From assembly GCA_046537785.1 (NCBI GenBank), contig JBKHKD010000005.1, positions 27,991 to 91,990 on the forward strand: 64,000 nucleotides of DNA, given 5' to 3'. This document shows, one piece after another, positions 28,806 through 49,704 of this stretch. The position numbers and the translations under genes were made by a program. Source of the stretch: Actinomycetota bacterium (GTDB lineage Bacteria > Actinomycetota > Acidimicrobiia > Spongiisociales > ZC4RG35). The notes under the pieces are model-generated. The model did no database searches. It was not told the origin of the DNA and was given only the letters and a program-made list of their open reading frames with translations. The first letter of the stretch is position 1; the number at the start of each line of letters is the position of its first letter.

Positions 28806-28806
28806 G

Positions 28807-29697: not shown

Positions 29698-29706
29698 CGA
29701 AGCCAA

Positions 29707-34219: not shown

Positions 34220-34273
34220 CGTTGGCTCCTCTCGCCCCTGGAGTGGGAACCAAGCCTTGATGATCCACCAATA

Positions 34274-34295
34274 GAGGCCCCATCTCAGGGGCCTC
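34274..34295. other. GC-rich stem-loop GAGGCCCC-ATCTCA-GGGGCCTC in the metG leader / element flank
   Basis: Perfect 8 bp inverted repeat with a 6 nt loop, about 55 nt upstream of the metG start (minus strand) and about 120 nt from the left att repeat. No clear U-tract. Confidence 0.3.
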
Positions 34296-34414
34296 GACGT
34301 TCTTCAGACGCGCCGAATATGCCCCAGGGAGGGGCGCATCATCGAGCGACTGCAGAACGAAATGGTCATTTCCGTCACAAGCCTACCCCCACACGGTGGC
34401 CGTGCTACCGAACA

Positions 34415-34545
34415 TCCAGATTCTGGATGTTCGATAAGTTCGATGAAACGACCGAGGTGCTGGCCGGAGGATCGTCGACAAGCCTCTGACCAGCACCTTT
34501 GTGGTCGGGACGGCCGGATTTGAACCGGCGACCTCAGCGTCCCGA
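34415..34545. repeat. left direct repeat (attL side), including a truncated 3' part of tRNA-Pro (34501..34545, corresponding to tRNA nt 32-76)
   Basis: About 90% identical to 49540..49672. 66 bp perfect core 34480..34545 (AGCCTCTGACCAGCACCTTTGTGGTCGGGACGGCCGGATTTGAACCGGCGACCTCAGCGTCCCGAA). Identity ends exactly at the position matching tRNA nt 32 in the anticodon loop. Confidence 0.8.
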
Positions 34546-34637
34546 AAGGTGCCGGGCCTCTTTTCTAAATACTGATTTGGACGAATTACCAGGTCAGAGC
34601 CTATGAGTGGACTGGCCTGGACCCCCTTGATTGTGAG

Positions 34638-34663
34638 CGGATGTTCGATAAATGTTCGATGAA
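34638..34663. repeat. third copy of the 26 nt motif GGATGTTCGATAAATGTTCGATGAAA, candidate integrase/Xis arm-type site
   Basis: The same motif occurs inside both att repeats (34424..34447 with a 1 nt deletion; 49549..49574 exact). It contains an internal tandem TGTTCGAT. Confidence 0.45.
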
Positions 34664-34759
34664 AGTCGCGAAAAGTGACGCTATTTCGGATCACCCATCC
34701 TGCATCGTTCTGACTTACGATGGCTTGGATGGCTCTCTTCCTCTGCACATCTACTCGGA

Positions 34760-35023
34760 GTGCTGCCAATGGTCGATAAGCCCATCGACCTCGCCGCCGC
34801 ACGGGAGCAGACCCTCGAGGCGATCCGGAAGGAGTATCCCCCATTGCTCACCTCGGCCCATGTCGCCGAGCTCATGCAATGCACCATCTGGGAAGTGCGC
34901 GACCAGGTCCACCGTGGCGAGCTTCCCGCGGTCCGTTGGGGTCAGCAGTTCCGCTTCTTCCGCGAAGAGGTGTTGGCCGTCCTCCTCAACCGGCCGGCCG
35001 GACCCAACGAGGCCGATGACTGA
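34760..35023 (+). CDS. HTH_17 (excisionase/AlpA-like) DNA-binding protein
   Basis: 87 aa, GTG start. Segment AHVAELMQCTIWEVRDQVHRGELPAVRWGQQFRFFREEV fits the excisionase-type winged HTH. Confidence 0.55.
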   Translation: MLPMVDKPIDLAAAREQTLEAIRKEYPPLLTSAHVAELMQCTIWEVRDQVHRGELPAVRWGQQFRFFREEVLAVLLNRPAGPNEADD

Positions 35024-35270
35024 CGTGCCCGACGAGAACCCTGAGATCACATACGAGAAGTGGTATCCGGACGTGCCGCCCGTCATGGACAGTCAAGAGC
35101 TGGCGGAGCTGCTCTCGGCCTCAGATCAGGTGATCCGGACCTGGGCACGCGAGGGCGTGATCCCGTCCCACCGGGCTCCCGGCGCTCGCAAGTTCAAGTT
35201 CCTCCGCCATGAGATCTTCCAGTGGCTCGTCGAGAATCGTTACGTCCCACCCGACGACCAAACCGCCTGA
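35016..35270 (+). CDS. HTH_17 (excisionase/AlpA-like) DNA-binding protein
   Basis: 84 aa from the ATG overlapping the upstream stop (ATGACTGA). Segment QELAELLSASDQVIRTWAREGVIPSHRAPGARKFKFLRHEIFQWL. The longer track ORF (34641..) has an implausible N-terminus. Confidence 0.5.
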   Translation: MTDVPDENPEITYEKWYPDVPPVMDSQELAELLSASDQVIRTWAREGVIPSHRAPGARKFKFLRHEIFQWLVENRYVPPDDQTA

Positions 35271-35398
35271 TTTCAACACGCGAGCGGGCCAATTACACCG
35301 TTTGTCGGATCAGACCGCCCTCAAAGTCCCCGCAAATCTCGGGTGGTCAGAAGGATCACCGTTCCAATCAAGATACGACTCCATCGGCATCCTGTCCG

Positions 35399-38161
35399 CT
35401 AGCCCTCTCCATCCTCCACCCTGACCACCTGCATACCTGCGAATTTCGCCCCGACAATGTTGCCCGCTTCTTCGCGCGGAGCAGGGCCCGAAAGCCATCC
35501 CGCACTCGACAGGTCCTCCCAGAGCCATTGGTACACCAGCCGGGTGACAGGATCTGCATCGAAGATGTCCAGGACGGTCATCGCACCTGATGGAGATAAA
35601 CGATGGGCGAACTCAGGGCGATACCGTCGGATTGCGGTGAAGATGCTCTCCGGCGGATCCCCGCCCACAACGCTGGGCACATCGGCTGTCAGGTCCACAA
35701 CCGAAGCCTGGGAGTCGTCGATCGGCTCCCAGTAGTAATTCAGAACAGGACCCATGCCGCCCTTGTTGTTGGACATGGTGAGTCGCCCTCGCATCGATAC
35801 CGGCATCATGAGTGCTCGAGGCATGACGTGTCTTAGGTTGGAGAACCACTGGTCGACAATCTCTGTGAACGTATGGAGGGCTGCTTCGTAAACTGCGATC
35901 GTCCGCTCTCGAAGACGCTGTTCGGAGTAGGGGGACCACACCCACCCACCGCTGTGTCTCAGATCCGGACCGGGCAATGGAGGATCCATCGTTTGAGCGC
36001 CGCTTGCTTGCAGCTGTCCGACAACTCGTCGCAATTCGGGGATACGCAATCGGCGCCGGCGCACCGCGTTGAACCCCGCAGCTTCGGCTCGCTCCAACAC
36101 CTCCTCGTCGAGTAGCTGGAGATCAATGGGTTCGCTATAGAGACTGCCGCGGCCAATGAGTTCCAGCGCGGTTCTCCATGCGGCCTCCTTCTCAATGAAT
36201 GTCCCACTAGTCGGCAGTGATCGAGTCGACATGATGTTGGCTAGCGACAGCTTCAAGGTTTCAAGGCTCCACCGCCATGGCCAGTTGGATCCACTCCCAA
36301 CTGGACTTGAGAGAACGAGTCCCCATGGCCATTGGCCTTGAAAGGCCTCCGGAGGAACGTCACTCCCCACCTCGTCCTCACCGAAATACCACGACGTACT
36401 GAGTCGTGACCCATATATTTGCGCCGCGAAAGGGCAGAGACCTTGCCGCGTTAGCGGACCGATGAGGCGACCCAGGTCGCCCAAACCTGTGATCCATGAC
36501 ACCATCGTGGTCGGCACTCGACCGAGTTCCCTCTTCGACGGTTGGACTTCGGATATGTCCCCCTCGTCGCCCCACCTCGAGAGCGCGTCGTCTATCACTT
36601 CGCCGGCCAGGCCGGGGTAACGAGTGACAAGCTCGTCCATTTGATCGTACGTGCCGTCAAAGCTCCCTTTTCCGATGGCGATCGAGAGTGAGGTCGACCA
36701 CGCCTCAGCGTCTCTGAGTTCCTCAATGGGAGCCCGATTTCCCTCCAATAGCCACTGGGCAGCAAACCACTGAGCAAAGAGCGGTATCGAGAATTGCAGT
36801 GCGCGTCCGCTGTCTACGATCAGGCCAGCTTGGGCAAGCGTGAAGCGAGTGTCCGGCGTTAACCCGGCCTCGGCGGCATGGATCGGACCCACCCCGTGCT
36901 CAATGCTTTTAGCTGCAAGCGTCGGAAGTGCATCCAAACCGTCACCCTGGTGTCCCGGCCGTCCCAGTGCCGTGTTGATGACCTCATCAATGAGTGACAC
37001 GACGTTTGATGGCGGCCTCCCCACAGCCCGAATGAAACTGCCAGCCAGGATTGCGAACAATGGCCTCTTGACAGCTTCTCGAAGAGACTCTGGCCACTCG
37101 GAGATCGAGTACGTGGAGAGTTGCGTATCTCCGACAAGGTTGATGAGTTCAAGGGACCCCTCAACGCTCAGGGGAGTTAGTTGTATGCATTCCTCGAACC
37201 GTGCCATCGTTGGAATAGGGCGGCTTGTCACACATATGGTCGTTGCCGGGTACGTGTGGCAATACGCTCGAGCTTGCTCGATGACTTCGACCGCCCGCTC
37301 GCTGCCGAGAGATTCGAGACCGTCCACCACCAACCAAACCCCGCGGTCAGGGTTCCAGCTCAAAGGGCCTGCGACTTCGGAAATCGTGCCTTCAAGGCCG
37401 CCCTGTATCTGACCTGCCTCCACGTACACGGGTAATGGGGCCGCGTCGTCGTCAAGGGCGTTGGTAATGGCACGTTGGAGCAATCGCTCGGCCGTCAGAC
37501 TCTTCCCGCTCCCCATCGGACCAACAAGCAGAACCAGCCCTCGCCTGTCGGCGACAAGTCGTGACGGAACCCCCAAGTCTGGATCGTCGGCGAAGTCGGT
37601 TGCTGATGCAGAGGGTATACCAGCCCCCTGCCAGCGGGCGATACACCTACCCCGCGACTGGCGGCCGACAGTCTCAAGGTATGGAAGTCGGCTCGGACTG
37701 GTGGCAGCTCGTCGACGTACAGCTCGAACGATCTCGTCCTGGAGTGTGAGCCGAATGATCTGACCGAGACTTGCCAAGTCGTCGACGGTTACCCACTTGC
37801 AATGTTGGGCTACTCGGTCCAGGAGCGCTTCGGTGCCGTCAGCTCGTTCTTGAACAGGCAGCTTGAACACTAGAAGAGGAACCTTGTTATCTAGCGCCGT
37901 CGTAATCTCGTCCTCGACGGGACCGCTGGTCTCAGCGCCCACCAGCCAAATGACTAGATCAGCACTGGCTACGCGCTCCAGGTAGGTGGTACGAGGACCC
38001 TCGGAGCTAGCCGGTGTGAACTCGAACAACCACGGATGAAGAAACGGCGCATCCCCGATCGCCTGCTTCGCCAGGCCGCGCGCTGTATCCAGGAGCGGAT
38101 CGCCCATCACAGAGCTGACAAAAACCTGAAGCGGCCGCTCACTGGCGATTATTCGACCCAC
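35399..38161 (-). CDS. NACHT-family STAND NTPase with DUF4062-like N-terminal module and large uncharacterised C-terminal region; candidate NLR-like defense protein
   Basis: 920 aa, GTG start. N-terminal about 130 aa (PLQVFVSS...ADLVIWLVGAETSGPVEDE...VPLLVF) resembles DUF4062. Walker A LLVGPMGSGKSLTA. NACHT-type Walker B GVWLVVDGLESLGSE. TSRP motif (ICVTSRPIP). About 540 aa C-terminal region with no recognisable repeats. Confidence 0.7.
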   Translation of the reverse strand: MGRIIASERPLQVFVSSVMGDPLLDTARGLAKQAIGDAPFLHPWLFEFTPASSEGPRTTYLERVASADLVIWLVGAETSGPVEDEITTALDNKVPLLVFKLPVQERADGTEALLDRVAQHCKWVTVDDLASLGQIIRLTLQDEIVRAVRRRAATSPSRLPYLETVGRQSRGRCIARWQGAGIPSASATDFADDPDLGVPSRLVADRRGLVLLVGPMGSGKSLTAERLLQRAITNALDDDAAPLPVYVEAGQIQGGLEGTISEVAGPLSWNPDRGVWLVVDGLESLGSERAVEVIEQARAYCHTYPATTICVTSRPIPTMARFEECIQLTPLSVEGSLELINLVGDTQLSTYSISEWPESLREAVKRPLFAILAGSFIRAVGRPPSNVVSLIDEVINTALGRPGHQGDGLDALPTLAAKSIEHGVGPIHAAEAGLTPDTRFTLAQAGLIVDSGRALQFSIPLFAQWFAAQWLLEGNRAPIEELRDAEAWSTSLSIAIGKGSFDGTYDQMDELVTRYPGLAGEVIDDALSRWGDEGDISEVQPSKRELGRVPTTMVSWITGLGDLGRLIGPLTRQGLCPFAAQIYGSRLSTSWYFGEDEVGSDVPPEAFQGQWPWGLVLSSPVGSGSNWPWRWSLETLKLSLANIMSTRSLPTSGTFIEKEAAWRTALELIGRGSLYSEPIDLQLLDEEVLERAEAAGFNAVRRRRLRIPELRRVVGQLQASGAQTMDPPLPGPDLRHSGGWVWSPYSEQRLRERTIAVYEAALHTFTEIVDQWFSNLRHVMPRALMMPVSMRGRLTMSNNKGGMGPVLNYYWEPIDDSQASVVDLTADVPSVVGGDPPESIFTAIRRYRPEFAHRLSPSGAMTVLDIFDADPVTRLVYQWLWEDLSSAGWLSGPAPREEAGNIVGAKFAGMQVVRVEDGEG

Positions 38162-38482
38162 AATGCCTCAGTTGTAGCGACGACAATCTTCACGTCGAAG
38201 TGTGAGTCAATCGGCGGTAGTCCGGATATCGGGTGGCGGTGCGAATTCGCGACCACCTGAATTCTCGATGCGGTGTGTTTCGGCGCGAGATGCGGAGCAA
38301 CGGATCCGATTCCATGATCCGCCACCGATTGCGAGGGCGAGAGCACCTGAATCACGAGGGCATCTCCTCAGCGAGGTGCATGCCGACATCCCCCATTGCT
38401 TCTAGCAACTCCTGCACAACTCGCACAACAGTCTTAGCTTCGTCTTCGCTCACTTGATGGCCCGCGTGAACGACACTGCGTC

Positions 38483-39115
38483 TTATCCCGTTGGCGCCAA
38501 GCCACTTTGCCAAAGTGCCTGATCGTCAGCCGGACTGTCAAGGCCGATTCTCCTTATCGGCTTCTTCATCCGGTCACTGAGGACCTGCCCGTCTTCGTAC
38601 ATGAAGTGGTCAAACTCCTCCTCGGTCATGTCTCCGGAGTCGACAAGAGATGAGTACAGCTGCTTGTCGACAAACACCTCCAAGGCAGCAACCGCCTCAA
38701 TCACCGCCAGTCGATAATCCGTCTCCCATACGGCTCTGATCGCAGCCAAGAGAAGGTCGGCATGAATCGGGACGTTTTCTCCCGCCTCAGCCATCCGACG
38801 CACGTCCTCGTGGACAGCCAGTCCGTCGTTAACAACGGCGATCCTGAGTCCCCTACTAAAGAGTCCCACATATTCAATCTCACCTGTCAATGGATACTGG
38901 ATCTCCATGAAGCGGAGATCTGCGACTCGAAGTCGAGGAATGTAGGCCCGACCACTGATGTAGCGATAGGTGTCAATAAGGGCATTCGCGGCCGCCACGG
39001 CTAGGTGAGCTATGCGAGTCCCCTTTTCCTGTGGGGGTGTGTCCGCTGGATAGGTGAGTCCCACCACCATTCGTGTGTATCGGAAGTATCCAGTGCGGTC
39101 TCCGGCGAACTCCAC
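38483..39115 (-). CDS. hypothetical protein
   Basis: 210 aa, GTG start, no recognisable domain. Same strand, between the TA pair and the NACHT gene. Its frame stays open about 90 nt upstream without a canonical start. Confidence 0.4.
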   Translation of the reverse strand: MEFAGDRTGYFRYTRMVVGLTYPADTPPQEKGTRIAHLAVAAANALIDTYRYISGRAYIPRLRVADLRFMEIQYPLTGEIEYVGLFSRGLRIAVVNDGLAVHEDVRRMAEAGENVPIHADLLLAAIRAVWETDYRLAVIEAVAALEVFVDKQLYSSLVDSGDMTEEEFDHFMYEDGQVLSDRMKKPIRRIGLDSPADDQALWQSGLAPTG

Positions 39116-39165
39116 GTTCTTACCGACGAGGCCAGTTGTCTCATCACCACCGATAGGAGCGCCGA

Positions 39166-39456
39166 TCAGGTGTCCCTCGTGAAGTACCTGGTCTGGTCGG
39201 CAACGGTGTCATCATCCGAGGAATCCTGTGAGTTACGCCACATCTTCCGCGTGTCGATCTGCACGGGAGTGCCGTCGATGCGAACTACGTATGTCCCGTC
39301 CTCGAGATAGAGGCAGTAGGGCAGCTCAAGTCGGACTGCTATCGGAACGCCACCGTCCGGCTCAGTCACAGTCCATTTCATGGTGCTCATTCTCAGCTTC
39401 TCAACAAAACCAGTTTCCTTGCGATCGTCGTGGACTTTATGGAGGAGGGCCGACAA
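39166..39456 (-). CDS. hypothetical protein
   Basis: 96 aa, no recognisable domain. 50 nt upstream of the previous ORF in a different frame, so possibly a frameshifted fragment of one larger gene. Confidence 0.3.
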   Translation of the reverse strand: MSALLHKVHDDRKETGFVEKLRMSTMKWTVTEPDGGVPIAVRLELPYCLYLEDGTYVVRIDGTPVQIDTRKMWRNSQDSSDDDTVADQTRYFTRDT

Positions 39457-39511
39457 GAGCTATGGAGGATCTCTGGAAGAGTCGTCAATCAACGAGATCG
39501 GCGACGGCTAA

Positions 39512-39793
39512 CTATGGCTTCGAAGCAGTTTGACCGTATCTCTGACGGGCCGCCTCCCCCGACGTTCCGACCATTGCTCCAATCGATGCCCAGGAGTGTC
39601 CGTTAGCGCGAGCCCTCCGGACGGCGTCGGTTACTCGTTGTTCGGCTTCGGCTCGGGCAAGGAAGGCATGACGTAGCTGTCGAAGGGCGCTCGCGTCCCG
39701 GACGTCGTCTGCGTCTGGCTCGTGGTCTTCGAAGCGAGTAGCCAACTCCTCGGCTTGGTTGATGATCTCTTCAGCGGTTCGTGGCATGGTCAC
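39512..39793 (-). CDS. putative antitoxin (HTH-containing) partner of the BrnT-like toxin
   Basis: 93 aa, acidic N-terminus, C-terminal HTH-like GHSWASIGAMVGTSGEAARQRYG. 4 nt overlap with the upstream toxin gene; toxin-first order as in BrnTA. Confidence 0.45.
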   Translation of the reverse strand: MTMPRTAEEIINQAEELATRFEDHEPDADDVRDASALRQLRHAFLARAEAEQRVTDAVRRARANGHSWASIGAMVGTSGEAARQRYGQTASKP

Positions 39794-40017
39794 CTCAGGT
39801 ACTTTGGGCGGGCTTTCATTGCGTGGACCACGATCGGGCCCTCCTCGGTGCCCACGACGCCGATTTCGTAAAGATTGCCGGCACTATCGGGTCCGATGAA
39901 CATCGTCATTCGCTCGTCGAGGTCCTCGACGAGTATCGGGTTGTTGAAGGCATGGAGGATCGTCTCATCGCTAACACCGTGCGTTCTCGCACTGTCGACG
40001 ATTCGTGGCTTGGTCAC
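39790..40017 (-). CDS. BrnT-like toxin (DUF497 family ribonuclease toxin)
   Basis: 75 aa. HGVSDETILHAFNNP and (R)MTMFIGPDSAGNLYEIGVV...IVVHAMKARPKYL follow the BrnT pattern (HGVSxEEaxEvF.dP ... R.ISARKATK.E). Confidence 0.5.
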   Translation of the reverse strand: MTKPRIVDSARTHGVSDETILHAFNNPILVEDLDERMTMFIGPDSAGNLYEIGVVGTEEGPIVVHAMKARPKYLR

Positions 40018-40069
40018 AAGTTACCTTGCCAAATCGACGACTGCAAGATAACTTGCGACGTCGTAGGAA

Positions 40070-43000
40070 TCATCCGACGAGCCTCAGGGTCGGGGCTGGC
40101 GTTTCGATGGGCTCGAGGGCGATGTCGCGCCATTGCGCGGTCCCCGGTACAACAGGGTCGAGGAGATCGACCTCGGGCCCTACCTCCAACCGAGTCCTGG
40201 CGTAGACGGCCACGGCGGTATCCCACGCTTGCGGATTGGGAGATTCGGATCGGGATCCGATCTCGGCGAGAAGATCTTCTGGCGGGTTTATCTGCGAGAG
40301 CACCGTTCGGGCTGCGACTCGCCTGTCGATCTCCTGGAGGACGTCGCTGTATTCGTCGACCAACCGGGCGTGCTCGTCCATCCAGCGACCTCGGCGCGCC
40401 ATGGCCTCTGCCTCCATCATCGGCTGGTCGACCGCTGCGAGGTCGATGGTCGGCTCGTAGAGGGGGCCGTCCTTGAACAGTTGGAGGAGTTCTTCGCGTC
40501 GATCGATCAGCTGGCGATCGGTCATCGTCTCCGTGGATGGACGAGATTCGGTGGCAGCGGGTCGGACACCGCTGTTGGCGAGCTGGCGGACAAGGCTGTC
40601 GATACGGTTCTCGACTGCCGGTCGACAGTGAAGATGGCCGCAATCGCCGGTGGGCCCTGGCGGGTCGGCCATCCAGATGTGGGTTTCACCGGTCGCTCGG
40701 GACAGGCCCGTGTAGCCATGCTCGGCGGTCATCATCTGATCGACGTAGAGGTGGACCCGGTCGTAGGTGTGGCCCTGGGCGGTGTGGATCGTCTGGGCGT
40801 ATCCGTAGTCGACACTCTGATCGACATACCGTCTCGGCAGGACCACTTCAACCCGGTCGTGGTCACGCCTGAAAGTGAGCTGACCTGAATCGAGGTCGAC
40901 GTGGGCGATGGTTCCCGTTTGTCCGTTGCGGAGGTCGGCGTGGGCGTACCAGTTGCTCCGCACCACGATCCGGTCCCCGGCCTGAAATCGCATTCCCGTC
41001 CGGGTCTCCAAGGCTGGTCCGGCGAGGAGGCCTTCGGATTCCATCCGGGCTCGTGCGAGATGGTTGAGTATGTCGACGTCGGTGCGGCGGCCGGACAACA
41101 TCCGAACGCTGTCGATACCGTGCTCTCTGGTGTCGGCCCACCAGACGTCGACCAGGTCGCTCATGGTGTTCGTGCGGTCGTGGCCGACGTGGACGCGGCC
41201 GGCTTCGGTGTAGTCGAACAGGGTTCGTTCGGTGTTTCCGGCTCGGAGCTGGTCCAGCGCCTCCCGGTCGATGTCGTGCGCCTGTCGTTGGTTCACTTCT
41301 GCGAGGTCGGTGACGACTCCGTGGCCGTCGGCCATGATCCGGTGGAACAGGCCACCCGAGTCGATCGAGGGCAGCTGGTACGGGTCGCCGAGGAGGATCA
41401 GCTTGCCATCAGCGGCGCCGACCAACTCGACGAGACGTGCCAGGTCTTTAGTGGACACCATGGAGGCCTCGTCAGAGACGATCACCGTTCCCGAGGGCAG
41501 GATCTCGTCTCGCTGGTCGAGATGGTGGGTGAGCATGGCGATGGTGCCGGTCCAATGCTCAACGAGGTCTTGGGACAGTCTCTGTGCTGCGCTGGCGGTG
41601 GTTGCCACTCCGATGACGTGATGGCCGGCGGCTTGGGCGGCGTCGGTGTAGGCGCCGATCGCATAGGTCTTTCCCGAGCCGCCCGGACCGGCCACCGCCA
41701 CGACTCGCCCGTCCAGGTCTGCGAGACGTCGGATCGCCCACTCCTGTTGCCTGGTCAGCTCCCGGAGCTTGGCTGCCCGATCCAGCACATCGGCGTCGAT
41801 TCGGACGGGGCTCGGCTGGTGTACGGCGGAGAGGACCCCTTGCTCCCGATCCAGCTGTGTCCGCGTCGTGAACAGAGCGTCATCCGACAGCCACCATCTT
41901 CCGCCCAGCGTGTGGTCGGCGAGGGGGATGGCCTCGCCACGCGCCACCGCCGCTTCGAGGACCCGGTCGACGGCGAGGGCGAGATCGGCGGATGTGGTGC
42001 CTTCGGGGAACGATTCGGCGACGTACGGCAGGAGGTCGCGCTTGGTGAACACCGGCTGCGAGTCCGTGACTTCGACCACGGTCCATTCCGCCGAGTCGGT
42101 CAAGCTTCCCGGGCTAGGACGGAAACGGTGGCGGCCCTCACCGACGACCGCCCGGACGACCTGAGCCGGGTCTTCCGGCGCGTCCGCGGCACGTCGCTGC
42201 CAGTGAGCAACCACGTCCGAGCCCACTCCGTAGTCACGCATCTCCTGGGTGACCGGAGCCTCCCCTCGAGGGTGCTGTTTGGGCTGGCGGGTCTCCAGAG
42301 TGAACTTCTGCAGCATCCTGGCGTGGATCCGACCGCCGTTGCGTGCCGCATACGCTTCCGCCGCTTCGAGGATCTCGGCCCGACGTGTCGAGAAGTGCTC
42401 CAGCAGTTCTCGGGAGAAGCCGCTGATGTCGGCGATCCCGTTCACCACCGGTCCCCAGGAGACACCGAGTCGCCGGGTGAGCTCGTCCCGGAGCACCGTT
42501 TCGTAGATGGTTCCGCCTGCCTTGGCGTGCAGGTAGTTGCGTCGGGCTTCCAGGGCTCTCCAGCCGTCTTCGGTGTGGACCCGGTTGATCACCACCACGT
42601 GGGTGTGGAGCTGGGGGTCGTTGGCCCGTGAGGTGGAGTGGTCGAACGCTGCGGCCACCCATCCATCCGAGTCGACGTACTGCGTGGTCTGCTGCCGCTT
42701 GCAATTTTCGTCCCGCCGGCTTGTCACCTTCCTGGCTTGCGCGCAGTGTTCCTCCATGTACTCCACCGCCTGACCAACTGCCTCCAAATGAGCGTGACGG
42801 ACCTGCTCTCGGATCTGGCTGTCCCCGAAGGCGTAGAGGAGCGACACCGACTTGGGAGCGGACAGCGTGTGGTCGAATGCCGCCACCTTGCCGTGGGATG
42901 CGTGAGCCCGAGTCATCGACTCACCCGAAAGCGTCACGTGACCCATCAACCGGGCGAAAGCCTCCTTGGTCACCGGCGACTCCGGGTCAACACCCGCCGC

Positions 43001-43174
43001 CTCGAGCCCTGAGCCCATCCACCGTGCCGGCGCCTGATGGCTTGCGTAGTAGTCGACCCGGCCATCCTTGCCTACGCCACGCAGGACCGGGACGTCCTCG
43101 CCAACCGAATGGGAGAGCTGTTCGGTGTAGTAGTCCACCGACGCCGCCGACAGCTTCCCGATCGCCAACATCAC
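40070..43174 (-). CDS. MobF-family (TrwC/TraA-like) conjugative relaxase with C-terminal RecD/AAA_30 helicase
   Basis: 1034 aa. N-terminal TrwC relaxase domain with a histidine triad (DPQLHTHVVVINRVH). P-loop helicase (VAVAGPGGSGKTYAIGA) and UvrD_C-like end. Confidence 0.85.
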   Translation of the reverse strand: MMLAIGKLSAASVDYYTEQLSHSVGEDVPVLRGVGKDGRVDYYASHQAPARWMGSGLEAAGVDPESPVTKEAFARLMGHVTLSGESMTRAHASHGKVAAFDHTLSAPKSVSLLYAFGDSQIREQVRHAHLEAVGQAVEYMEEHCAQARKVTSRRDENCKRQQTTQYVDSDGWVAAAFDHSTSRANDPQLHTHVVVINRVHTEDGWRALEARRNYLHAKAGGTIYETVLRDELTRRLGVSWGPVVNGIADISGFSRELLEHFSTRRAEILEAAEAYAARNGGRIHARMLQKFTLETRQPKQHPRGEAPVTQEMRDYGVGSDVVAHWQRRAADAPEDPAQVVRAVVGEGRHRFRPSPGSLTDSAEWTVVEVTDSQPVFTKRDLLPYVAESFPEGTTSADLALAVDRVLEAAVARGEAIPLADHTLGGRWWLSDDALFTTRTQLDREQGVLSAVHQPSPVRIDADVLDRAAKLRELTRQQEWAIRRLADLDGRVVAVAGPGGSGKTYAIGAYTDAAQAAGHHVIGVATTASAAQRLSQDLVEHWTGTIAMLTHHLDQRDEILPSGTVIVSDEASMVSTKDLARLVELVGAADGKLILLGDPYQLPSIDSGGLFHRIMADGHGVVTDLAEVNQRQAHDIDREALDQLRAGNTERTLFDYTEAGRVHVGHDRTNTMSDLVDVWWADTREHGIDSVRMLSGRRTDVDILNHLARARMESEGLLAGPALETRTGMRFQAGDRIVVRSNWYAHADLRNGQTGTIAHVDLDSGQLTFRRDHDRVEVVLPRRYVDQSVDYGYAQTIHTAQGHTYDRVHLYVDQMMTAEHGYTGLSRATGETHIWMADPPGPTGDCGHLHCRPAVENRIDSLVRQLANSGVRPAATESRPSTETMTDRQLIDRREELLQLFKDGPLYEPTIDLAAVDQPMMEAEAMARRGRWMDEHARLVDEYSDVLQEIDRRVAARTVLSQINPPEDLLAEIGSRSESPNPQAWDTAVAVYARTRLEVGPEVDLLDPVVPGTAQWRDIALEPIETPAPTLRLVG

Positions 43175-43324
43175 CCCCTCCCGGCCGGCAACACATCGTG
43201 TTGCAAGTGCGTACGGAGAAATCGCCCTGGCGACGAGAGGACATGTCGTGTCATCGAGGACTCCTGGGTCAGTGGCGAAGAGTCAGCCAGCAACGTGACC
43301 GGCGTCCACATGCGGCTCGACTGA

Positions 43325-43423
43325 CCCTTGCATTAGTCATTGTTAACGATAGAATACCTAGAGATCAAAGGAATTACTAGGAATCAATTGCTGCACCGTG
43401 ATCCTCTTCGGACCCGAAATGGG
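43325..43423. promoter_or_regulatory. AT-rich divergent region between the relaxase gene and xis-int; candidate promoter/oriT region
   Basis: CATTAGTCATTGTTAACGATAGAATACCTAGAGATCAAAGGAATTACTAGGAATCAATTG. The GACATGTC palindrome and other short inverted repeats lie just upstream, at about 43175-43324. Confidence 0.4.
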
Positions 43424-43642
43424 ATGGAGAAGCTCCTTCTCACTCCCGAGGACGCCGCCGACCTCCTTTCAATCGGCCGCTCCAAGCTGTATGAGTTGTT
43501 AGGAGACGGCCGACTCGCCTCGGTTCGCATCGACGGCAGCCGACGTGTCCCGATGAGCGCTCTCGTCGAATTCGTCGACAGCCTCAAGGAGACTTGGAAT
43601 CAACTTCCCGACGTAGGACCCGCCCGGAGACGCAGAAACTAA
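43424..43642 (+). CDS. xis: excisionase (HTH_17/Xis family)
   Basis: ATG at 43424 gives a 72 aa protein (MEKLLLTPEDAADLLSIGRSKLYELLGDGRLASVRIDGSRRVPMSALVEFV). Stop is 1 nt before the integrase start. The track ORF starts at a TTG at 43340 inside the AT-rich tract. Confidence 0.65.
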   Translation: MEKLLLTPEDAADLLSIGRSKLYELLGDGRLASVRIDGSRRVPMSALVEFVDSLKETWNQLPDVGPARRRRN

Positions 43643-43643
43643 A

Positions 43644-44777
43644 ATGAGCATCCACCCCCGAATGACCGACCGAGGGCGTGTCTACGACGTTCGGTACCGG
43701 GGACCAGGCGGTCAAAACTTCTCCCGAACATTCCTCACCAAGCGAGCCGCGCTCGAGTTCGAAGCGCAACAGAGAACAGCCAAGAACCGCGGCACCTGGA
43801 TCGACCCTCGAGGCTCCAAGATCACGGTGCGGGAGCTCGGCCAGGAATGGCTCGACAGCAACCCGACAAAGCGAGACTCCACGTGGGCCCGTGACGAGAG
43901 CGCCCTTCGAATCCACGTCTACCCCGACCTGGGGGACAGGACTATCGGCAGTCTCACCCCGGTCGACATCAGAAGGCTGGTCGCCAAGATGTCCGAGAAC
44001 CTGGCACCTCGATCTGTGCGACGCATTTACGGAGCGCTCCGAGCCGCGCTGAACTATGCCGTCGAGGTCGACCGGCTGGCGAGGACACCCTGCCGAGGCA
44101 TCCACCTTCCGGCTGTCGAGCCGGTGAAAGTCACCGTGCCAGGTCCCGTGGAGCTCATCGAGCTAGCCGACACGATCGACCCGAACTACTCGGCGATGAT
44201 CTGGCTCGGAGCAGTACTCGGTCTCCGCTGGGGCGAAGTAGCAGGACTGCGCGTCGGCAACGTCGACGTGCTCCGCAAGACCGTGACGATCGCCGAGCAG
44301 GTAACCCGAGGTAGAGGTGGGGCGGGCGACATCGGTCCACCAAAATCAGCCGCCGCCCGCAGGACTATCAGCATCCCGGCTGAGCTAGCAGACGAGCTAA
44401 GCGCCCACATGAAGGCCATGGAGCTGACGGGAGCCGACCCTGAGGAGATGCTCTTCCCCAACAACGAAGGAAAGCCACTCGACTACTCCAACTGGCGTCG
44501 CAGAGTCTGGGAGCGAGCCGTCAAGGCCGCCGGCTTAGACGGTCTCAACTTCCATGACCTCCGCAGGACTAACGCCACGGCAATGGTCGCCGAGGGCGTG
44601 GACGTCAAGACGGCACAGGCCAGACTCGGACACTCCGATCCGCGTCTGACGTTGGCCATCTACGCCCAGGCGACGACGGAGGGCGACCGCTCAGCGGCGG
44701 AGAAGCTCGGTGCGCGGCTGATGGGCTCCGGTGATGAGGACGGCGATGCCTCGTCCTCAGTATCAACATCCGTATAA
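43644..44777 (+). CDS. int: tyrosine-type site-specific integrase
   Basis: 377 aa. N-terminal SAM-like domain. Catalytic domain with R...HDLRRT...LGHSDPRLTLAIYAQ (R-H-R-Y). Confidence 0.9.
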   Translation: MSIHPRMTDRGRVYDVRYRGPGGQNFSRTFLTKRAALEFEAQQRTAKNRGTWIDPRGSKITVRELGQEWLDSNPTKRDSTWARDESALRIHVYPDLGDRTIGSLTPVDIRRLVAKMSENLAPRSVRRIYGALRAALNYAVEVDRLARTPCRGIHLPAVEPVKVTVPGPVELIELADTIDPNYSAMIWLGAVLGLRWGEVAGLRVGNVDVLRKTVTIAEQVTRGRGGAGDIGPPKSAAARRTISIPAELADELSAHMKAMELTGADPEEMLFPNNEGKPLDYSNWRRRVWERAVKAAGLDGLNFHDLRRTNATAMVAEGVDVKTAQARLGHSDPRLTLAIYAQATTEGDRSAAEKLGARLMGSGDEDGDASSSVSTSV

Positions 44778-44936
44778 AGGATGAAGCCTCGATGGATCGT
44801 GGTAGTCGAACTCCATCGCGAGTACCGAGATCTCGACAAGGGCCTACGGGTCGCATAGTGAGGGGCCCTGAGATGGGTCCTCACGTGCAGAGCACAGGTC
44901 AGACTCAGCCGTTTCCTGGACCGGCTAGGGGGAAGA

Positions 44937-47615
44937 TCAGGTGGCACGGCGGGGTGGTGTGACCGGGGCGGATCGAACTGAGAGGGCGGTGAGGACGGCG
45001 ATGAGGAGCGGGAGAGCGACGCCGATCGCGACCAGAGCGGGCCAGGGGACGGCGACGAACGAGGAGCGGACAATACCGAAGGGCCCGGCCCAATAGCCGT
45101 CGTCGGCGAGTCCGATCACTTTCATCAGCCCGAGGCCGAGGGGGATGGCGAGGAGGGCGGCGACGAAGGTCTGGTAGCCGGCGAGCACGCCGAGGAAGCG
45201 GCGGCGGATGCTTCCTGGTGCTCCGACCGCGACCACGATGCCGAGGTCGTGGTCGACCTCGGAGGCGGAGACGGCGGTGACGAGGGCGATCACGAGGAGT
45301 ACGACGAGGAGGGTGCCGCCCAGCATGAGGGGGTAGAGGTCGGCGAGGGTGAAGTCGGAGAACCCACCGACAACGTCGAAGTTCAGGTTGACGGATTCCC
45401 GCTCGGAGTCGGTGAGCGGCCTGTCCAGCACGAATAGGGCACGGGTTTGCCGCTCTCCCTCCAGCTCTGCGGCGACCTGTTCTGAGACCAGGATTCGGGA
45501 CATGGCGAAGGAGAGGATCGGCACCGGGAGCTGGGTTACGGTGCGTCGCTCCCCGGCTAGCTCGACGTCGATGGTTCCCTCCTCGACGCCGAGGACGGCG
45601 ATGCCGTCGGTGGCCAGCGCTTCCGCCAGGCCGGGGTGGTCGAGGGCCTGCACCAGCTCCGGTGTCGCCACCGCCACGCTGCTCCCGCCCACGTCTCTGC
45701 TCGGCACCCCCGGGACCTCGCCTTCGCTGATGGGTATCTGCCAGCCGAGGATTGCAGGTGTGTCGATCGCCTCGTAGGGGGCGAGCGTCTCCTCGGGGAT
45801 GACCGCCGCCGCTTGGTGGATGTCGGCTTCGGTGAGGTCGCCTCCGCCTCCGAACATGCCCTCCTCGGGGGCGGCGCCGACCAGGAGCAGGTGGTCTTCG
45901 GGGTGGGGGAGGCCGTGTACCCGTTGCTGCACCTCGGAGGTGGCTTCGAATGCGATCGACACCACCGGGATGATGAGGATCACCAGGGTCGCGGCTACCG
46001 CTACCGCCGAACGGGTGCGGTGGCGGGCGGAGTCGCGAAGCACCAGGCGTGTGGTGCCGGCGACTCGGTCGGCCGCTCGGGAGAGGAGGGCGAGGATGGG
46101 GCCGGCGAGGAGGGCGGTTCCCCCGATGGCCATCGCCCCGCCTATCGGAACGATGACAACTGCGAGGTCGACGGTGGAGGCGAGGGCGACCACAAGCAGG
46201 AGGGCTCCCATCCCGGCGAGGCCCAGGCCGAGGGGAACGATCCAGGGTCGGGGTGGGAAGGCGGGCATGCGTCCTTGGAGGGCGGTGGTGGTGGGCACCC
46301 GGGAGGCGGTACGGGCCGGGATCCACGCAGCGACCGCGGCCGCTCCGACCGCCATCGCCGCCGGGCCCACCACGTCGAGGGGGGTCACACCGATACCCAC
46401 CAGCAGCTTGGTGACGAACTGTTGAAGGAGGGGCCGGGCGGCGAGCAGAACTCCGGTCCCGAGACCGATCCCAGTGGCCGCCCCCAGGGCCCCGACCGCG
46501 AGGCCTTCCCCGAGGACGGTGAGGCGGAGGTGTCGGTCGGAGGCGCCGTTGGCGCCCAACAGGCCGATCTCCCGCAGCCGACGTCGGGTCCCGGCGGCGA
46601 AGGCTGCACCGGCCACGAAGGCGACCTCGAGCAGGAGCAGCGCGGAGACCCCGGTGGAGATCGTAGGAGCGGACTCGACCACGGAGTTGTGCTGCTGCTG
46701 GGAGAGGGCTGCCCTGGTTTCCACCTGGAGATAGGGAACCGTGACCTGAGGGCGGACGGTGGCATCGATCATCCGGTGCGCCTCGGTGCGGGCAGCTTCG
46801 TCGCCTTCCGTGCGGGCGACCTCGACCAAGTGCTCCACCTCGGACTCGTCGAAGTACACGTATATCTCGTCGGGGACGGAGGCCAGCTCCCCTGGCTTGG
46901 GAAGCACCGCCGGCTCGGGCCAGAACTGGCGTCGGTCCTGTTCCCAGCGCTCTGCGAGCGCCTCCGCCGTCGCCACCGGGTCCTCGTCGGCGATGACCAC
47001 CGTCGTTCCGTCGTCCCCGGCCACCGGGTAGATGGCGTCCATCAGCTCCATCGTCACTGTGATGAGCCGCTCCTCGTAGATCCCTGGCGATCCCACCAAC
47101 CCCACCAGCTCCATCGTCTTGCGCTCCACGCCCGGTAGCTCCAGCTCCACCGTGTCACCGGGTTCGACACCGAGCCGCTCGGCGAGCAGCGGGGACAGCG
47201 CCACCTCATCTCCGGATGCTGGCGGCCGGCCTGCGGTGGTCGCCCGCATGGCGCCGGTGATCGGGTCGGCCGGGTCGATGTCACTCATCCTTTCGGTACC
47301 CGCCACCTCCGGGATCAGGTCGGTGCGCACCATCCGCATCACCGTCCATGTGGCAGCCGGACTCACTTCGCCCAGCGTCGACTCCACCCAGGAGAGCACC
47401 CGGGAGTCGTCCGACAACCCCACCCAGATGTCGCCATCACCGAAGATCGACCGCATCGACTCCTCGACGGTGCGCTCACTTGCCCGGAACATCCCCGCAG
47501 CCACCACCGCCACCATCACCGGGACGGCGATCAGGGCCACCAGGAACCCGGTGCGACGGCGGTTGCGGATGGCGTTGCGCCGTGCCACCCGAAGGGCAGC
47601 AGCTCGCCCGCTCAC
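44937..47615 (-). CDS. ABC transporter permease with two FtsX domains and large extracytoplasmic MacB-like domains
   Basis: About 890 aa. GTG start overlapping the ATPase stop (GTGA), N-terminus LRVARRNAIRNRRRTGFLV. Two 4-TM FtsX blocks. The overlapping 473 aa Arg-rich ORF (44905..46326) is an alternative-frame artefact. Confidence 0.75.
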   Translation of the reverse strand: MSGRAAALRVARRNAIRNRRRTGFLVALIAVPVMVAVVAAGMFRASERTVEESMRSIFGDGDIWVGLSDDSRVLSWVESTLGEVSPAATWTVMRMVRTDLIPEVAGTERMSDIDPADPITGAMRATTAGRPPASGDEVALSPLLAERLGVEPGDTVELELPGVERKTMELVGLVGSPGIYEERLITVTMELMDAIYPVAGDDGTTVVIADEDPVATAEALAERWEQDRRQFWPEPAVLPKPGELASVPDEIYVYFDESEVEHLVEVARTEGDEAARTEAHRMIDATVRPQVTVPYLQVETRAALSQQQHNSVVESAPTISTGVSALLLLEVAFVAGAAFAAGTRRRLREIGLLGANGASDRHLRLTVLGEGLAVGALGAATGIGLGTGVLLAARPLLQQFVTKLLVGIGVTPLDVVGPAAMAVGAAAVAAWIPARTASRVPTTTALQGRMPAFPPRPWIVPLGLGLAGMGALLLVVALASTVDLAVVIVPIGGAMAIGGTALLAGPILALLSRAADRVAGTTRLVLRDSARHRTRSAVAVAATLVILIIPVVSIAFEATSEVQQRVHGLPHPEDHLLLVGAAPEEGMFGGGGDLTEADIHQAAAVIPEETLAPYEAIDTPAILGWQIPISEGEVPGVPSRDVGGSSVAVATPELVQALDHPGLAEALATDGIAVLGVEEGTIDVELAGERRTVTQLPVPILSFAMSRILVSEQVAAELEGERQTRALFVLDRPLTDSERESVNLNFDVVGGFSDFTLADLYPLMLGGTLLVVLLVIALVTAVSASEVDHDLGIVVAVGAPGSIRRRFLGVLAGYQTFVAALLAIPLGLGLMKVIGLADDGYWAGPFGIVRSSFVAVPWPALVAIGVALPLLIAVLTALSVRSAPVTPPRRAT

Positions 47616-48331
47616 GTCAAGTCCGCCGCGGTCGATGGCACCCGGGACCGCTCCGAGATCCCCTCCACCGCACCGTCCCGCAGCCGCACCACCCGGTCCG
47701 CCCAAGCCGCGAATGCCGGCTCGTGGGTGACCAAAAGCGCCGCCGCGCCGGCGTCGCAGCGGGCCCGGAGCAGGCGGAGGATGCTCTCCCCGGTGGCCTC
47801 GTCCACCGCCCCGGTGGGCTCGTCGGCGAGAAGGAGAGTCCGAGGGCCCACCAGCCCTCGGGCGATGGCGACCCGCTGCTGCTCACCACCCGAAAGCTGA
47901 TCGGGAAACCGGTCGGCCATACCTCCCAACCCGACCTCGTCCAAAGCGACCTCGGCGAAGCGTCGCGCTTCACGGGGGTCCATCCCGTCGAGCTCCAACG
48001 GCAGAGCGATGTTCTCCGCCGCGGTCAGAGACGGCAACAGGTTGAACTGCTGAAACACATACCCCACCGACACTCGACGAAGACGGGCCAGCTCGGCACG
48101 CGACAGCTCGGCCAGGTCTTGGCCATCGACCCAGATGGTGCCTGTAGTGGGCGTGTCGAGCGCCCCCGCCAAGTTGAGCAGGGTGGTCTTGCCCGAACCG
48201 CTCCGCCCCGTCACCGCCACCAACTCACCAGGAGCGATATCGAGATCGACGTTGACCAGGGCATCGACCCGCTGGGCGCCAGTACCGTGGGTCTTCCCCA
48301 CCCGACGCATCGACAAGATCGGCTCGCTCAT
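47612..48331 (-). CDS. ABC transporter ATP-binding protein (MacB/LolD-type)
   Basis: Walker A GRSGSGKTTLLN, signature LSGGEQQRVAIARGL, Walker B LLLADEPTGA. ATG at 48331 (MSEPILSMRRVGKTHG) overlaps the padR stop. Confidence 0.85.
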   Translation of the reverse strand: MSEPILSMRRVGKTHGTGAQRVDALVNVDLDIAPGELVAVTGRSGSGKTTLLNLAGALDTPTTGTIWVDGQDLAELSRAELARLRRVSVGYVFQQFNLLPSLTAAENIALPLELDGMDPREARRFAEVALDEVGLGGMADRFPDQLSGGEQQRVAIARGLVGPRTLLLADEPTGAVDEATGESILRLLRARCDAGAAALLVTHEPAFAAWADRVVRLRDGAVEGISERSRVPSTAADLT

Positions 48332-48876
48332 GTCCTCACCTCCTCCGACCCTGGCACAGGCTCGGAAGCGGGAGCAGGGTCCAGCCGATCCTCGACCCGC
48401 TCCAGCCACCGCAGCTCCGCCTCGGCCGAGAGGATCAGCCGGTCGAGCTGTAGCTGCCAGGCCAGGTCCCGGTCATCGGCAGCCGCCTTGAGGGCCGTGT
48501 AGTCCTGGAGCAGGCCCATGGTGGCGCTCCGCTGCACCTCCACGACCCGACGGGCGTCCAACCCCGAGGCGAGGGCCACCATCAGCTTGAGCGAGATCTC
48601 ATCCCGCCCCGCCGCCGCAAGCTCCACTGGACCGGCCATCCAGGCCGCCACGGCCTCCCGGCCGGCATCGGTGATCCGATAGACGATCCGCCCCTGGGCG
48701 TCCGAGCCCGACGACGTCACCAGCCTGTCTCGCTCCAGCCGGGACAGAGTGGTGTACACCTGGCCGACATTGATCGACCACATCTCACCAGTCGCCGCCT
48801 CTAGATCCACCTTGAGCTGATACCCGTGGGCGTCTCCCCGCGCCAACAAAGCGAGCATTCCTTCCCTGATCCCCAT
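48328..48876 (-). CDS. PadR-family transcriptional regulator
   Basis: MLALLARGDAHGYQLKVDLE...VGQVYTTLSRLERDRLV winged HTH; 182 aa with a C-terminal coiled-coil. Confidence 0.8.
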   Translation of the reverse strand: MGIREGMLALLARGDAHGYQLKVDLEAATGEMWSINVGQVYTTLSRLERDRLVTSSGSDAQGRIVYRITDAGREAVAAWMAGPVELAAAGRDEISLKLMVALASGLDARRVVEVQRSATMGLLQDYTALKAAADDRDLAWQLQLDRLILSAEAELRWLERVEDRLDPAPASEPVPGSEEVRT

Positions 48877-49045
48877 TCAGACTCCTTACATACTCGGTAT
48901 GCGAGAGGATATACATACTGAGTAAGTGCTGTCAACCCGGGTCCCAATCTCTGTTCTCGCCAGAGGTGACCCAAGTGCGTCGCGTCACCACGGCGCGGTG
49001 GATCGACTCGGGTGGAGCGTGTGTGGCTCGCCGAAGTTGGACCTT

Positions 49046-49468
49046 CTAGGCAGGACCCAGATCGTCCAGCCACGTGCTGGGGCATGGCAGGTGATGCGGG
49101 ATGAACGTTGAAGGCGTCGGAACCGGGCGGGACAGGACGCTGCCCGAGCTTGTTGGCGTGACCGCGTACTCGTTGATGTTGTAGACGAGCGGGGAGTCGT
49201 TGGAGTCGTAGCGCTCAGTCACCAGAGTTCCTCGACGGGGCGAGTACGCGGCCCGGAGGAACTTCGTGCTGTCGCGAACGAAGCTCGGCTGATGTGACGT
49301 GGGTAGGAGCACGGCATCGCCCGTGCTGGTGGGAGGAACGAAATCGCTGGGTGTCGAGCGCCGGCTCATCGTCCATGATTGTCTCAGTGTTGAGCGCCTG
49401 GCCAATGCGTGGGCTTCTCGTCTCCGTCGTTCCCGACGGGGTAGTGAAGCCATGTCGTTACGGGACAA
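49046..49468 (-). CDS. hypothetical protein (Arg/Ser-rich, low complexity)
   Basis: 140 aa, TTG start, no domain. May not be a real gene. Confidence 0.25.
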   Translation of the reverse strand: MSRNDMASLPRRERRRREAHALARRSTLRQSWTMSRRSTPSDFVPPTSTGDAVLLPTSHQPSFVRDSTKFLRAAYSPRRGTLVTERYDSNDSPLVYNINEYAVTPTSSGSVLSRPVPTPSTFIPHHLPCPSTWLDDLGPA

Positions 49469-49539
49469 GCAAGGACGCGTCGTGCAGGCTCGTGAAGGAG
49501 GAGCCTAAGGGAACGATGGAAGGCGACTTGGCGGGTTTC

Positions 49540-49672
49540 CCAGATCTTGGATGTTCGATAAATGTTCGATGAAACGACCGAGGTGCTGGCCGGAGGCCTG
49601 TCGGTAAGCCTCTGACCAGCACCTTTGTGGTCGGGACGGCCGGATTTGAACCGGCGACCTCAGCGTCCCGAA
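49540..49672. repeat. right direct repeat (attR side), overlapping the 3' part of the intact tRNA-Pro gene
   Basis: Matches 34415..34545. Perfect 66 bp core 49607..49672. Confidence 0.8.
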
Positions 49673-49704
49673 CGCTGCGCGCTACCAACCTGCGCCACGT
49701 CCCG
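49628..49704 (-). tRNA. tRNA-Pro (anticodon CGG)
   Basis: Folded by hand. C1-G72 acceptor pair typical of bacterial tRNA-Pro, 7 bp acceptor stem, U8, D-stem GCGC/GCGC, anticodon stem CAGCG/CGCTG, loop TTCGGGA (anticodon CGG, G37), T-arm GCCGG-TTCAAAT-CCGGC, A73 and encoded CCA. Confidence 0.85.

Follow-up and report, generated by a model that had tools for sequence, protein, structure and literature searches.

A putative integrative mobilizable element with a MobF relaxase at the tRNA-Pro(CGG) gene of an Acidimicrobiia bacterium, and its relatives

The stretch analysed here, called the window in the following, comprises 64,000 nucleotides of contig JBKHKD010000005.1 (assembly GCA_046537785.1) from an Actinomycetota bacterium of the class Acidimicrobiia. 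It carries an intact gene for tRNA-Pro(CGG) on the minus strand (49628-49704) and a displaced copy of the 3' part of this gene, and an earlier note had read the DNA between the two as an integrative mobilizable element (IME or iMOB) with the tRNA gene as its target. The tRNA gene was called by ARAGORN as well as by Rfam (63.9 bits). A repeat finder detected direct repeats of 115 nt with 94% identity at 34438-34552 and 49564-49678, which corresponds to a spacing of 15,126 bp. When an indel of 2 nt was allowed, the similarity extended to approximately 34424-34552 and 49548-49678, so that the repeats of ~130 bp described before were recovered, but their perfect core has 67 nt (34480-34546, identical to 49606-49672) and not 66. 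The tRNA-derived share of this core amounts to 45 nt (34502-34546) and matches 49628-49672 perfectly; its length had been given correctly, its coordinates (34501-34545) were one base off. A 32-mer from the core is present in exactly two copies in the window (0 expected from shuffled sequences), and neither a second element nor a third copy of the attachment (att) site was found within the window. An 88-nt tRNA-Thr(GGT) called by ARAGORN at 41174-41261, inside the relaxase gene, was without Rfam support and was rejected as a false positive.

The DNA between the repeats encodes a recombination module and a relaxase. The excisionase gene xis (43424-43642, plus strand) codes for a protein of 72 aa (Pfam HTH_17, 1e-10; TIGR01764) that is 80-96% identical in related elements, and is followed by int (43644-44777, plus strand), which codes for a tyrosine integrase of 377 aa (Pfam Phage_integrase, Phage_int_M and SAM_3) with the catalytic residues R195, H304-x-x-R307, H330 and Y340. 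Two small genes for DNA-binding proteins are located at the left end on the plus strand. HTHa (34760-35023, 87 aa) belongs to the HTH_17/excisionase family (Pfam HTH_17, TIGR01764) and is 91-95% identical in relatives; HTHb (35025-35270, 81 aa) is HTH_17/MerR-like (Pfam HTH_17 on the C-terminal part of the open reading frame (ORF) 34641-35270; phrog_66) and is also conserved there. Both are part of the backbone, and the Pfam and NCBIfam matches agree with the previous assignment of an xis-int pair at 43424-44777 and of two further HTH_17 genes at the left end. The relaxase gene (40070-43174, minus strand) codes for a MobF (TrwC/TraA-type) relaxase of 1034 aa with a superfamily 1B helicase (Pfam TrwC, 4e-69; AAA_30, 2e-41). 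The protein scored 217.6 bits with the NCBIfam MobF model NF041492 (cut-off 100), as expected from its original description as MobF/TrwC. It contains DYY motifs at residues 14-16 and 41-43 (tyrosine pairs 15-16 and 42-43), the histidine triad HSTSRANDPQLHTH at 179-192 and, in the helicase part, AAA_30 at 473-665 with a Walker A motif at 496-503; the TrwC-type domain with N-terminal tyrosine pairs and histidine triad, fused to a helicase, places it in MOBF.

Searches of all plausible ORFs between the repeats against Pfam, NCBIfam, PADLOC and PHROGs revealed no match to a type IV secretion system (T4SS), a coupling protein or a Rep protein, and none to VirB4, VirD4, TcpA or FtsK, in agreement with the earlier note. 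The segment has its own Int and Xis with flanking att repeats and its own relaxase, while genes for mating-pair formation or a coupling protein are missing; with a candidate oriT (see below), this fits the composition of canonical IMEs. It does not have the composition of a T4SS-type integrative and conjugative element (ICE), since a VirB4 ATPase, a VirD4 coupling protein and mating-pair-formation genes are absent between the repeats, nor that of a prophage or phage satellite, since capsid, terminase, primase and packaging genes are absent and the only PHROGs matches are to excisionase/HTH and toxin families. A search of a phage collection returned nothing beyond generic integrases, the att pattern had no match in viral contigs, and the whole element had no megablast match among plasmids.

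The relaxase gene and xis are divergent and separated by ~250 bp (43175-43423) which are a candidate for the origin of transfer (oriT) and for promoters. This region contains blocks that are conserved in 7 loci to the same degree as coding sequence. A hairpin with a 7-bp stem (GCAACAC-GAT-GTGTTGC, 43188-43204) lies 20-40 nt upstream of the start codon of the relaxase gene and shows one compensatory change, in the related locus L006; an imperfect palindrome is located at 43231-43256.

Related elements were recovered by a relaxase scan of species-representative genomes, by a metagenome scan with a pattern made of the P arm and the core, and by look-ups of integrase homologues. About 18 loci were obtained (L002-L007, L011-L021 and L026) from metagenome-assembled genomes of Acidimicrobiia and from soil metagenomes, all labelled Acidimicrobiia where named. 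All sufficiently long loci have the same order, that is P arm, HTH, HTH, slot 2, toxin-antitoxin (TA) pair, relaxase, xis, int, slot 1, P' arm and tRNA-Pro(CGG), and the same backbone lies beside tRNA-Pro(CGG) in L002-L007, L015, L017, L019-L021 and L026. By blastn, the backbone of the window copy comprises 34504-35244, 39512-44737 and 49535-49704 and is 79-92% identical to the relatives, whereas 35245-39511 and 44738-49534 are unique to the window copy. Set against the flanks, backbone DNA is 81-92% identical to the window, and the backbone proteins of the window are 83-96% identical to those of L002, L003 and L007, but the flanking Asd and aspartokinase only 69-71% and 59-69%. The elements of L002 and L005 are 99.78% identical over 9.68 kb; ~19 nt beyond the core the similarity ends, and their distal flanks are unrelated, as would be expected if one element had entered the tRNA-Pro genes of two hosts by site-specific integration. 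Because one nearly identical element has two unrelated flanks and because the host flanks diverge more than the backbone, the comparison argues that the family moves horizontally.

The attachment sites support this picture. The intact tRNA gene has a 3' part of 45 nt (49628-49672) which is identical to the displaced fragment and forms the attL core, supplied by the element. The displaced fragment (34502-34546, minus strand) covers the tRNA from anticodon loop to CCA end and forms the attR core. The P arm of attP (34547-34700, minus strand) is conserved in all family members and contains the box TGGTAATTCGTCC (34579-34591) and the tandem 9-mers ATCGAACAT-tt-ATCGAACAT (34639-34664). The same tandem is found in the P' arm (49535-49627, minus strand) at 49549-49574, next to a terminator-like hairpin (49582-49593 / 49606-49623) which directly follows the tRNA and folds with -34.6 kcal/mol (z = -6.7). 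The P' arm is kept next to the tRNA in L002, L003, L007, L015 and others. The 9-mers have a period of 11 nt, the 26-nt copies on both arms are identical, and the window has the tandem motif nowhere but at the att arms, against 0.03 chance matches expected. In attR, the identity of the fragment with the tRNA always begins at the anticodon loop (TTTCGGGA). The attR fragments of L002 and L005 differ only in the T-arm (GTGGG..CCCGC versus GTCGG..CCGGC), which is host-specific. This host-specific T-arm, next to elements that are 99.78% identical, places the crossover 5' of the T-arm; we infer a position between the anticodon loop and the variable loop, predicted within TTTCGGGACGCTGAGGTCG. This is a known crossover sublocation of tyrosine integrases which target tRNA genes.

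The arm motif points to a partner in Int. An AlphaFold model of the integrase (80 homologues, pLDDT 84.7) has strands at residues 2-8, 11-19 and 25-30 followed by a helix at 33-48, and a three-stranded sheet with a helix is the fold class of the arm-binding N-domains of lambda-type integrases; the Pfam arm-binding domain matched the N-terminus below threshold (E = 0.067). Across the related elements the arm 9-mer changes in step with Int residues 4-9 and 22-26, with no exception. Residues 24-26 are QNF or RNF where the 9-mer is ATCGAACAT (window, L002, L003, L004, L007 and L015), REI with ATCCCGCGT (L006, L017, L019/L020 and L021), REV with ATCCCGCG (L022), HAF with ATCGCAC(G/A)T (L026) and KTY with ATCGCGCGT (L023); the REI and REV types together stand for 5 elements in 6 loci. 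Because the motif covaries with the Int N-domain, the tandem 9-mers are probably arm-type Int sites. HTHa and HTHb were rejected as readers of the 9-mers since their sequences do not vary with the motif type.

The long flanking repeat needs a further explanation. In L002, L005 and L011 an unrelated native terminator comes after the attR fragment, and the direct repeat measures no more than ~48 nt. In the window, the fragment is followed by a second unit of hairpin plus motif (34416-34501, minus strand) which lies outside the element. It can be aligned with the P' arms that the elements of the family carry, and it shares 94% identity with the P' arm of the window element. The unit has a terminator-like hairpin (arms 34456-34467 / 34480-34497; -30.6 kcal/mol, z = -5.4) and a degenerate arm motif with a deletion of 2 nt at ~34425-34448, and it does not align with the native sequences downstream of the tRNA in L002, L005 and L011. 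An earlier family member probably left this unit behind as a scar. The long repeat is explained if the present copy integrated beside the relic P' arm of that earlier element; on these alignments the repeat would not be the attachment site itself but the sum of the tRNA core of 45-48 nt and the relic arm. P'-like units after attR, usually of the other motif type, were also found in L006, L012, L013, L014 and L016, and in L012 an integrase fragment is located 2.8 kb beyond the unit. We read these units as remnants or members of tandem arrays.

In five of the six junctions with a second arm, the P arm and the P'-like arm behind it belong to different motif types. Tandem stacks of elements that differ in Int/arm specificity may be more stable than stacks of like elements, six junctions being too few for statistics. 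The integrase gene of L006 is split into two ORFs (4530-5743), and relic int fragments are present in slot 1 of L006 (2543-2768) and beyond attR of L005 (11033-11149), which indicates repeated accretion and decay at tRNA-Pro(CGG).

The neighbourhood of the tRNA gene was compared with the relatives as well. L021, whose left flank is syntenic with window positions 26425-29695, has its attR ~110 nt from a gene for an ABC permease. In the window, an extra 4.7 kb (29698-34424), absent at the syntenic site of L021, lie between this conserved gene and the relic arm and encode a PPDK_N/Rph (rifampin-phosphotransferase)-like protein of 693 aa, an ORF of 146 aa and a methionyl-tRNA synthetase (MetRS) of 490 aa. 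Enzymes of the PPDK_N/Rph and the MetRS type are both linked to antibiotic resistance. The segment may be the surviving cargo of an older tandem element; its left edge (29698-30182) has no similarity to any family sequence and is not marked by a relic. On the other side, a gene for a protein of 103 aa (50148-50459) lies between asd and the tRNA gene; its homologue in L002 (60% identity, 20009-20311) sits on the far side of the element, indicating that the tRNA neighbourhood was rearranged between hosts.

Two ORFs on the minus strand between slot 2 and the relaxase gene encode the TA pair. The toxin (39790-40017, 75 aa) is RelS-like, a member of the RelE superfamily with BrnT-like fold (PDB 9sdc_C Toxin, E = 1.7e-10; phrog_17063, E = 1e-15), and the antitoxin (39512-39793, 93 aa) is a RelI-like helix-turn-helix protein (PDB 9sdc_A RelI, E = 5.5e-9; phrog_18428, E = 1.6e-23). 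The pair was detected only by the PDB and PHROGs searches; Pfam, NCBIfam and PADLOC gave no match even at E = 10. The structure 9SDC is RelS-RelI (Rv2663-Rv2664) of Mycobacterium tuberculosis, in which RelS is an RNase of the RelE superfamily with a BrnT-like fold that cuts the anti-Shine-Dalgarno sequence of 16S rRNA and for which K9, H10 and H64 are essential (PMC13284704). Like in M. tuberculosis, both partners are homologous and encoded adjacently, the toxin precedes the antitoxin with overlapping stop and start (4 nt), and the equivalents of H10 and H64 are kept. Unlike in M. tuberculosis, the pair resides on the backbone of a mobile element, the two proteins are fused in a single ORF of 170 aa in L002 (13158-13670), L004 and L005, and the equivalent of K9 (residue 12, 39982-39984) is Thr in the window and in L003; the other members have Lys. 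In the relatives the antitoxin is 68-91% identical and the pair overall 68-92%. The pair is found in that region in all members examined except the element carrying P0061, which has an unrelated RES-domain gene there, and because of this distribution it is counted as backbone and not as cargo. The earlier note had listed a BrnT-like TA pair as cargo: a TA pair it is and the BrnT-like label is reasonable, but it is a RelS/RelI homologue and conserved. Most simply, it would be an addiction module, with an activity that is predicted from homology.

Cargo is confined to two fixed places, slot 1 between int and the P' arm and slot 2 between the TA pair and the HTH genes, and both evolve fast. Slot 2 of the window carries, on the minus strand, a gene for a protein of 920 aa with DUF4062 and AAA matches (35399-38161), a STAND/NACHT-like P-loop NTPase and candidate defence protein, followed by genes for hypothetical proteins of 210 aa (38483-39115) and 96 aa (39166-39456), both absent from relatives and without a match in Pfam, NCBIfam, PADLOC and PHROGs. 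The 920-aa protein itself matched only DUF4062 and, weakly, P-loop models, and no PADLOC model; its full-length homologues (28-38% identical) carry PF13271 (DUF4062) and PF05729 (NACHT). The NTPase cargo described before is therefore present, its NACHT label being drawn from the homologues. A homologue with 69% identity adjoins a type I restriction-modification system and another integrase gene. In the relatives, slot 2 contains a complete Lamassu system (L002, 14465-18142; LmuB 2e-93, together with LmuC and LmuA) or a reverse transcriptase of the DRT type (L021, 4301-5797; RT_UG23, 2e-129). A role in defence is likely for the slot-2 NTPase cassette as well, to judge from this company.

Slot 1 of the window contains a transporter module on the minus strand, as recognised in the earlier note and supported by Pfam: a MacB/ADOP-like permease with two FtsX stretches (44937-47705, up to 922 aa with uncertain start codon), an ABC transporter ATPase (47612-48409; ABC_tran, 1e-34) and a PadR-family regulator (48328-48876; PadR, 1e-17, and Vir_act_alpha_C). 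This module is cargo; its permease is absent from the relatives at that position. Slot 1 of the relatives encodes pairs of extracytoplasmic function (ECF) sigma and anti-sigma factors, regulators or another MacB/FtsX transporter; the last is found in L026 and differs from the module of the window.

From these features a life cycle can be proposed. Int would recombine attP with the tRNA-Pro gene, and the element's own copy would thereby take the place of the 45 nt at the 3' end of the tRNA and of the terminator hairpin. The N-terminal beta-sheet domain of Int would bind the tandem ATCGAACAT repeats on both arms and place Int on attP, as suggested by the covariation. Xis would direct excision to a circle. 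The MobF relaxase-helicase would nick oriT, probably within the ~250 bp between xis and the relaxase gene, and guide the nicked strand, as a single strand, through a mating apparatus provided by a conjugative element in the same cell, while the RelS/RelI pair would stabilise the element. Because no member encodes a pore or a coupling protein, mobilisation by a helper in trans is the simplest model.

We consider it probable, at roughly 0.75, that the segment is a real IME of 15,126 bp and belongs to a family resident in the tRNA-Pro(CGG) genes of Acidimicrobiia; the figure is a joint one for the identity of the element, the proposed life cycle, the slots and the relic arm. Several observations weigh against it. 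Neither an excised circle nor an empty attB was found; the latter was sought by exact-protein look-ups of the flanking MetRS and Asd, and the contigs returned, with identical flank proteins, end in the repeat or tRNA and are silent on occupancy. The hairpins of the candidate oriT are no more stable than shuffled sequences (z = -0.34), the compensatory change is a single one, and no nic site was recognised there. The arm sites were assigned from covariation in ~13 loci, several of which are closely related. With Thr at the position of the essential K9, the TA module may be attenuated. Finally, no helper T4SS is encoded within 10 kb of any related relaxase gene, and we know of no T4SS helper for Acidimicrobiia. 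As to the contigs that break at the repeat, L008 (GCA_046543195.1, contig JBKGZX010000018.1), L001 and L009 stop exactly in the tRNA/repeat region, and these ends are consistent with assembly breaks.

The missing helper leads to a different view of transfer, in which the element would transfer itself without a separate helper. The route would be a minimal or unconventional one that uses the relaxase-helicase together with host-encoded proteins or unrecognised small proteins of the element. The relaxase has its own helicase, several ORFs are without assigned function, and compact int-xis-MobF elements appear to be common: relaxases with ~50% identity are abundant in Acidimicrobiia, where their genes form compact int-xis-relaxase units or stand beside SSB and ArdC genes, again with no T4SS within 10 kb. 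However, the ORFs of 210, 96 and 140 aa lack conservation within the family and so cannot be a transfer backbone, the conserved backbone has no membrane or ATPase component for translocation, and relaxase-dependent transfer is known to require a coupling ATPase and a pore in every case characterised so far; we regard this route as unlikely. Relaxase-only integrative elements may as such be common in the class. A different compact unit was seen in L024 (8400-13288), with an integrase that has a phage-type N-domain, an HTH_17 gene and a divergent gene for a MobF relaxase 49% identical to that of the window.

Further, the window copy could be a fixed, decaying island of a mobile family that is past excision or transfer. 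The exchange of Lys for Thr in the toxin, the lack of an excision product or empty site, and the decay seen in relatives (int split in L006, relic int fragments in L005 and L006) fit with this, but all backbone ORFs are full length with their catalytic residues, both att arms and their motifs are intact, the two 26-nt motif copies are identical and the 67-nt core is perfect, which makes a dead island improbable. It is also conceivable that the relaxase mainly initiates rolling-circle replication of the excised circle and that the island is an integrative plasmid-like element which spreads otherwise. There is no Rep gene, a relaxase-helicase fusion could sustain unwinding, and some ICE relaxases, NicK of ICEBs1 for example, drive replication as well. 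Yet the TrwC domain is complete and the protein scores above the cut-off of the NCBIfam MobF model, the closest plasmid-borne sequences are annotated as MobF relaxases and come from mobilizable or conjugative plasmids of corynebacteria, and one relaxase could serve both replication and transfer; a role mainly in replication is very hard to credit. A more speculative idea concerns the helper. The relaxase-only elements could be hitchers of pSAM2-like actinomycete integrative and conjugative elements (AICEs), with the AICE supplying cross-activation by Int and Xis and its FtsK/SpoIIIE-type translocase as exit route for the relaxase-bound strand; the differing pairs of Int N-domain and arm site would then be specificity types that permit tandem stacking at one tRNA. 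Both kinds of element use integrases of one family and reside at tRNA-Pro(CGG), and in the case of the ATCCCGCG type they also have the arm motif in common. We hold this idea to be quite improbable; if true, it would link the two modes of conjugation of actinobacteria.

In sum, mobilisation of an integrated element by its own MobF relaxase and a helper remains our preferred reading. The analysis documents a coherent, horizontally moving family of relaxase-only elements with a MobF relaxase in Acidimicrobiia, a largely uncultured class of soil bacteria. What is new here is the anatomy of the family, that is the covariation of arm sites and Int, the relic arms, the defence slot and RelS/RelI as a backbone module. 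At least four matched variants of Int N-domain and arm repeat provide a natural series for the divergence of arm-site recognition and the sharing of a tRNA site, the Lamassu and DRT systems in slot 2 of the relatives flag the DUF4062-NACHT-like cassette of the window as a candidate defence system, and the RelS/RelI pair, described only recently, here seems to serve mobile elements as an addiction module. Current understanding is not overturned by these findings; the family is fairly ordinary in kind and carries defence genes between hosts. A limited literature search revealed no description of it later than the IME review of 2017.

Defence-system hotspots are known from ICEs and phage satellites. 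The family is like them in having a fixed slot between backbone genes with differing systems in nearly identical elements, and unlike them in that the carrier is a MobF IME of Acidimicrobiia and that the cassette of the window matches no PADLOC model. Canonical IMEs consist of a tyrosine integrase, a single relaxase and an oriT, for example NBU1 of Bacteroides and ATE-1 of Trueperella (PMC5704250; definitions in PMC11389934). According to the IME review of 2017, the known ones use MobP, MobQ, MobV or MobC relaxases and none uses MobF or MobH, and ATE-1, with a MobV relaxase, was the one IME then known in Actinobacteria (PMC5704250). The family resembles canonical IMEs in that it brings its own int/xis and relaxase, has its att site within the 3' part of a tRNA gene, lacks pore and coupling genes, measures 12-15 kb and carries a TA pair and adaptive cargo; it differs in the large MobF relaxase-helicase and in the host class Acidimicrobiia, and its excision and mobilisation are predicted. 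The relaxase in turn is like the MobF (TraA/TrwC) relaxases of corynebacterial and rhodococcal plasmids, with TrwC and an AAA_30/RecD-like helicase, the histidine triad and the tyrosine pairs, but the identity is only 28-32% and the gene is integrated in the chromosome with int and xis and not located on a replicon.

The closest relation of the recombination module is to AICEs. pSAM2 integrates in tRNA-Pro, and the comparison with pSAM2 made in the earlier note holds, but the kinship is closer than suggested there. The locus L022 (1-4654) contains a classical AICE with FtsK_SpoIIIE, RepSA, HTH_17 and Int directly beside tRNA-Pro(CGG), whose Int (P0082) is 66% identical to that of the window and whose P' arm has three ATCCCGCG repeats, tandem 9-mers of the kind found in the island. 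Like the AICEs, the island has a tyrosine Int and Xis that integrate in a tRNA gene. Unlike the pSAM2-type AICEs, it has no FtsK/SpoIIIE-type Tra (no PF01580 match in any ORF), no replication initiator such as RepSA, RepAM or Prim-Pol (no match to a Rep family) and no spd, kor or Nudix genes. In their place it has a MobF relaxase, and this implies that transfer depends on the relaxase and involves a single strand, and is not the double-strand transfer of the TraB type. By its gene content, the family resembles a combination of an int/xis/att module of the AICE type with a MobF module for mobilisation.

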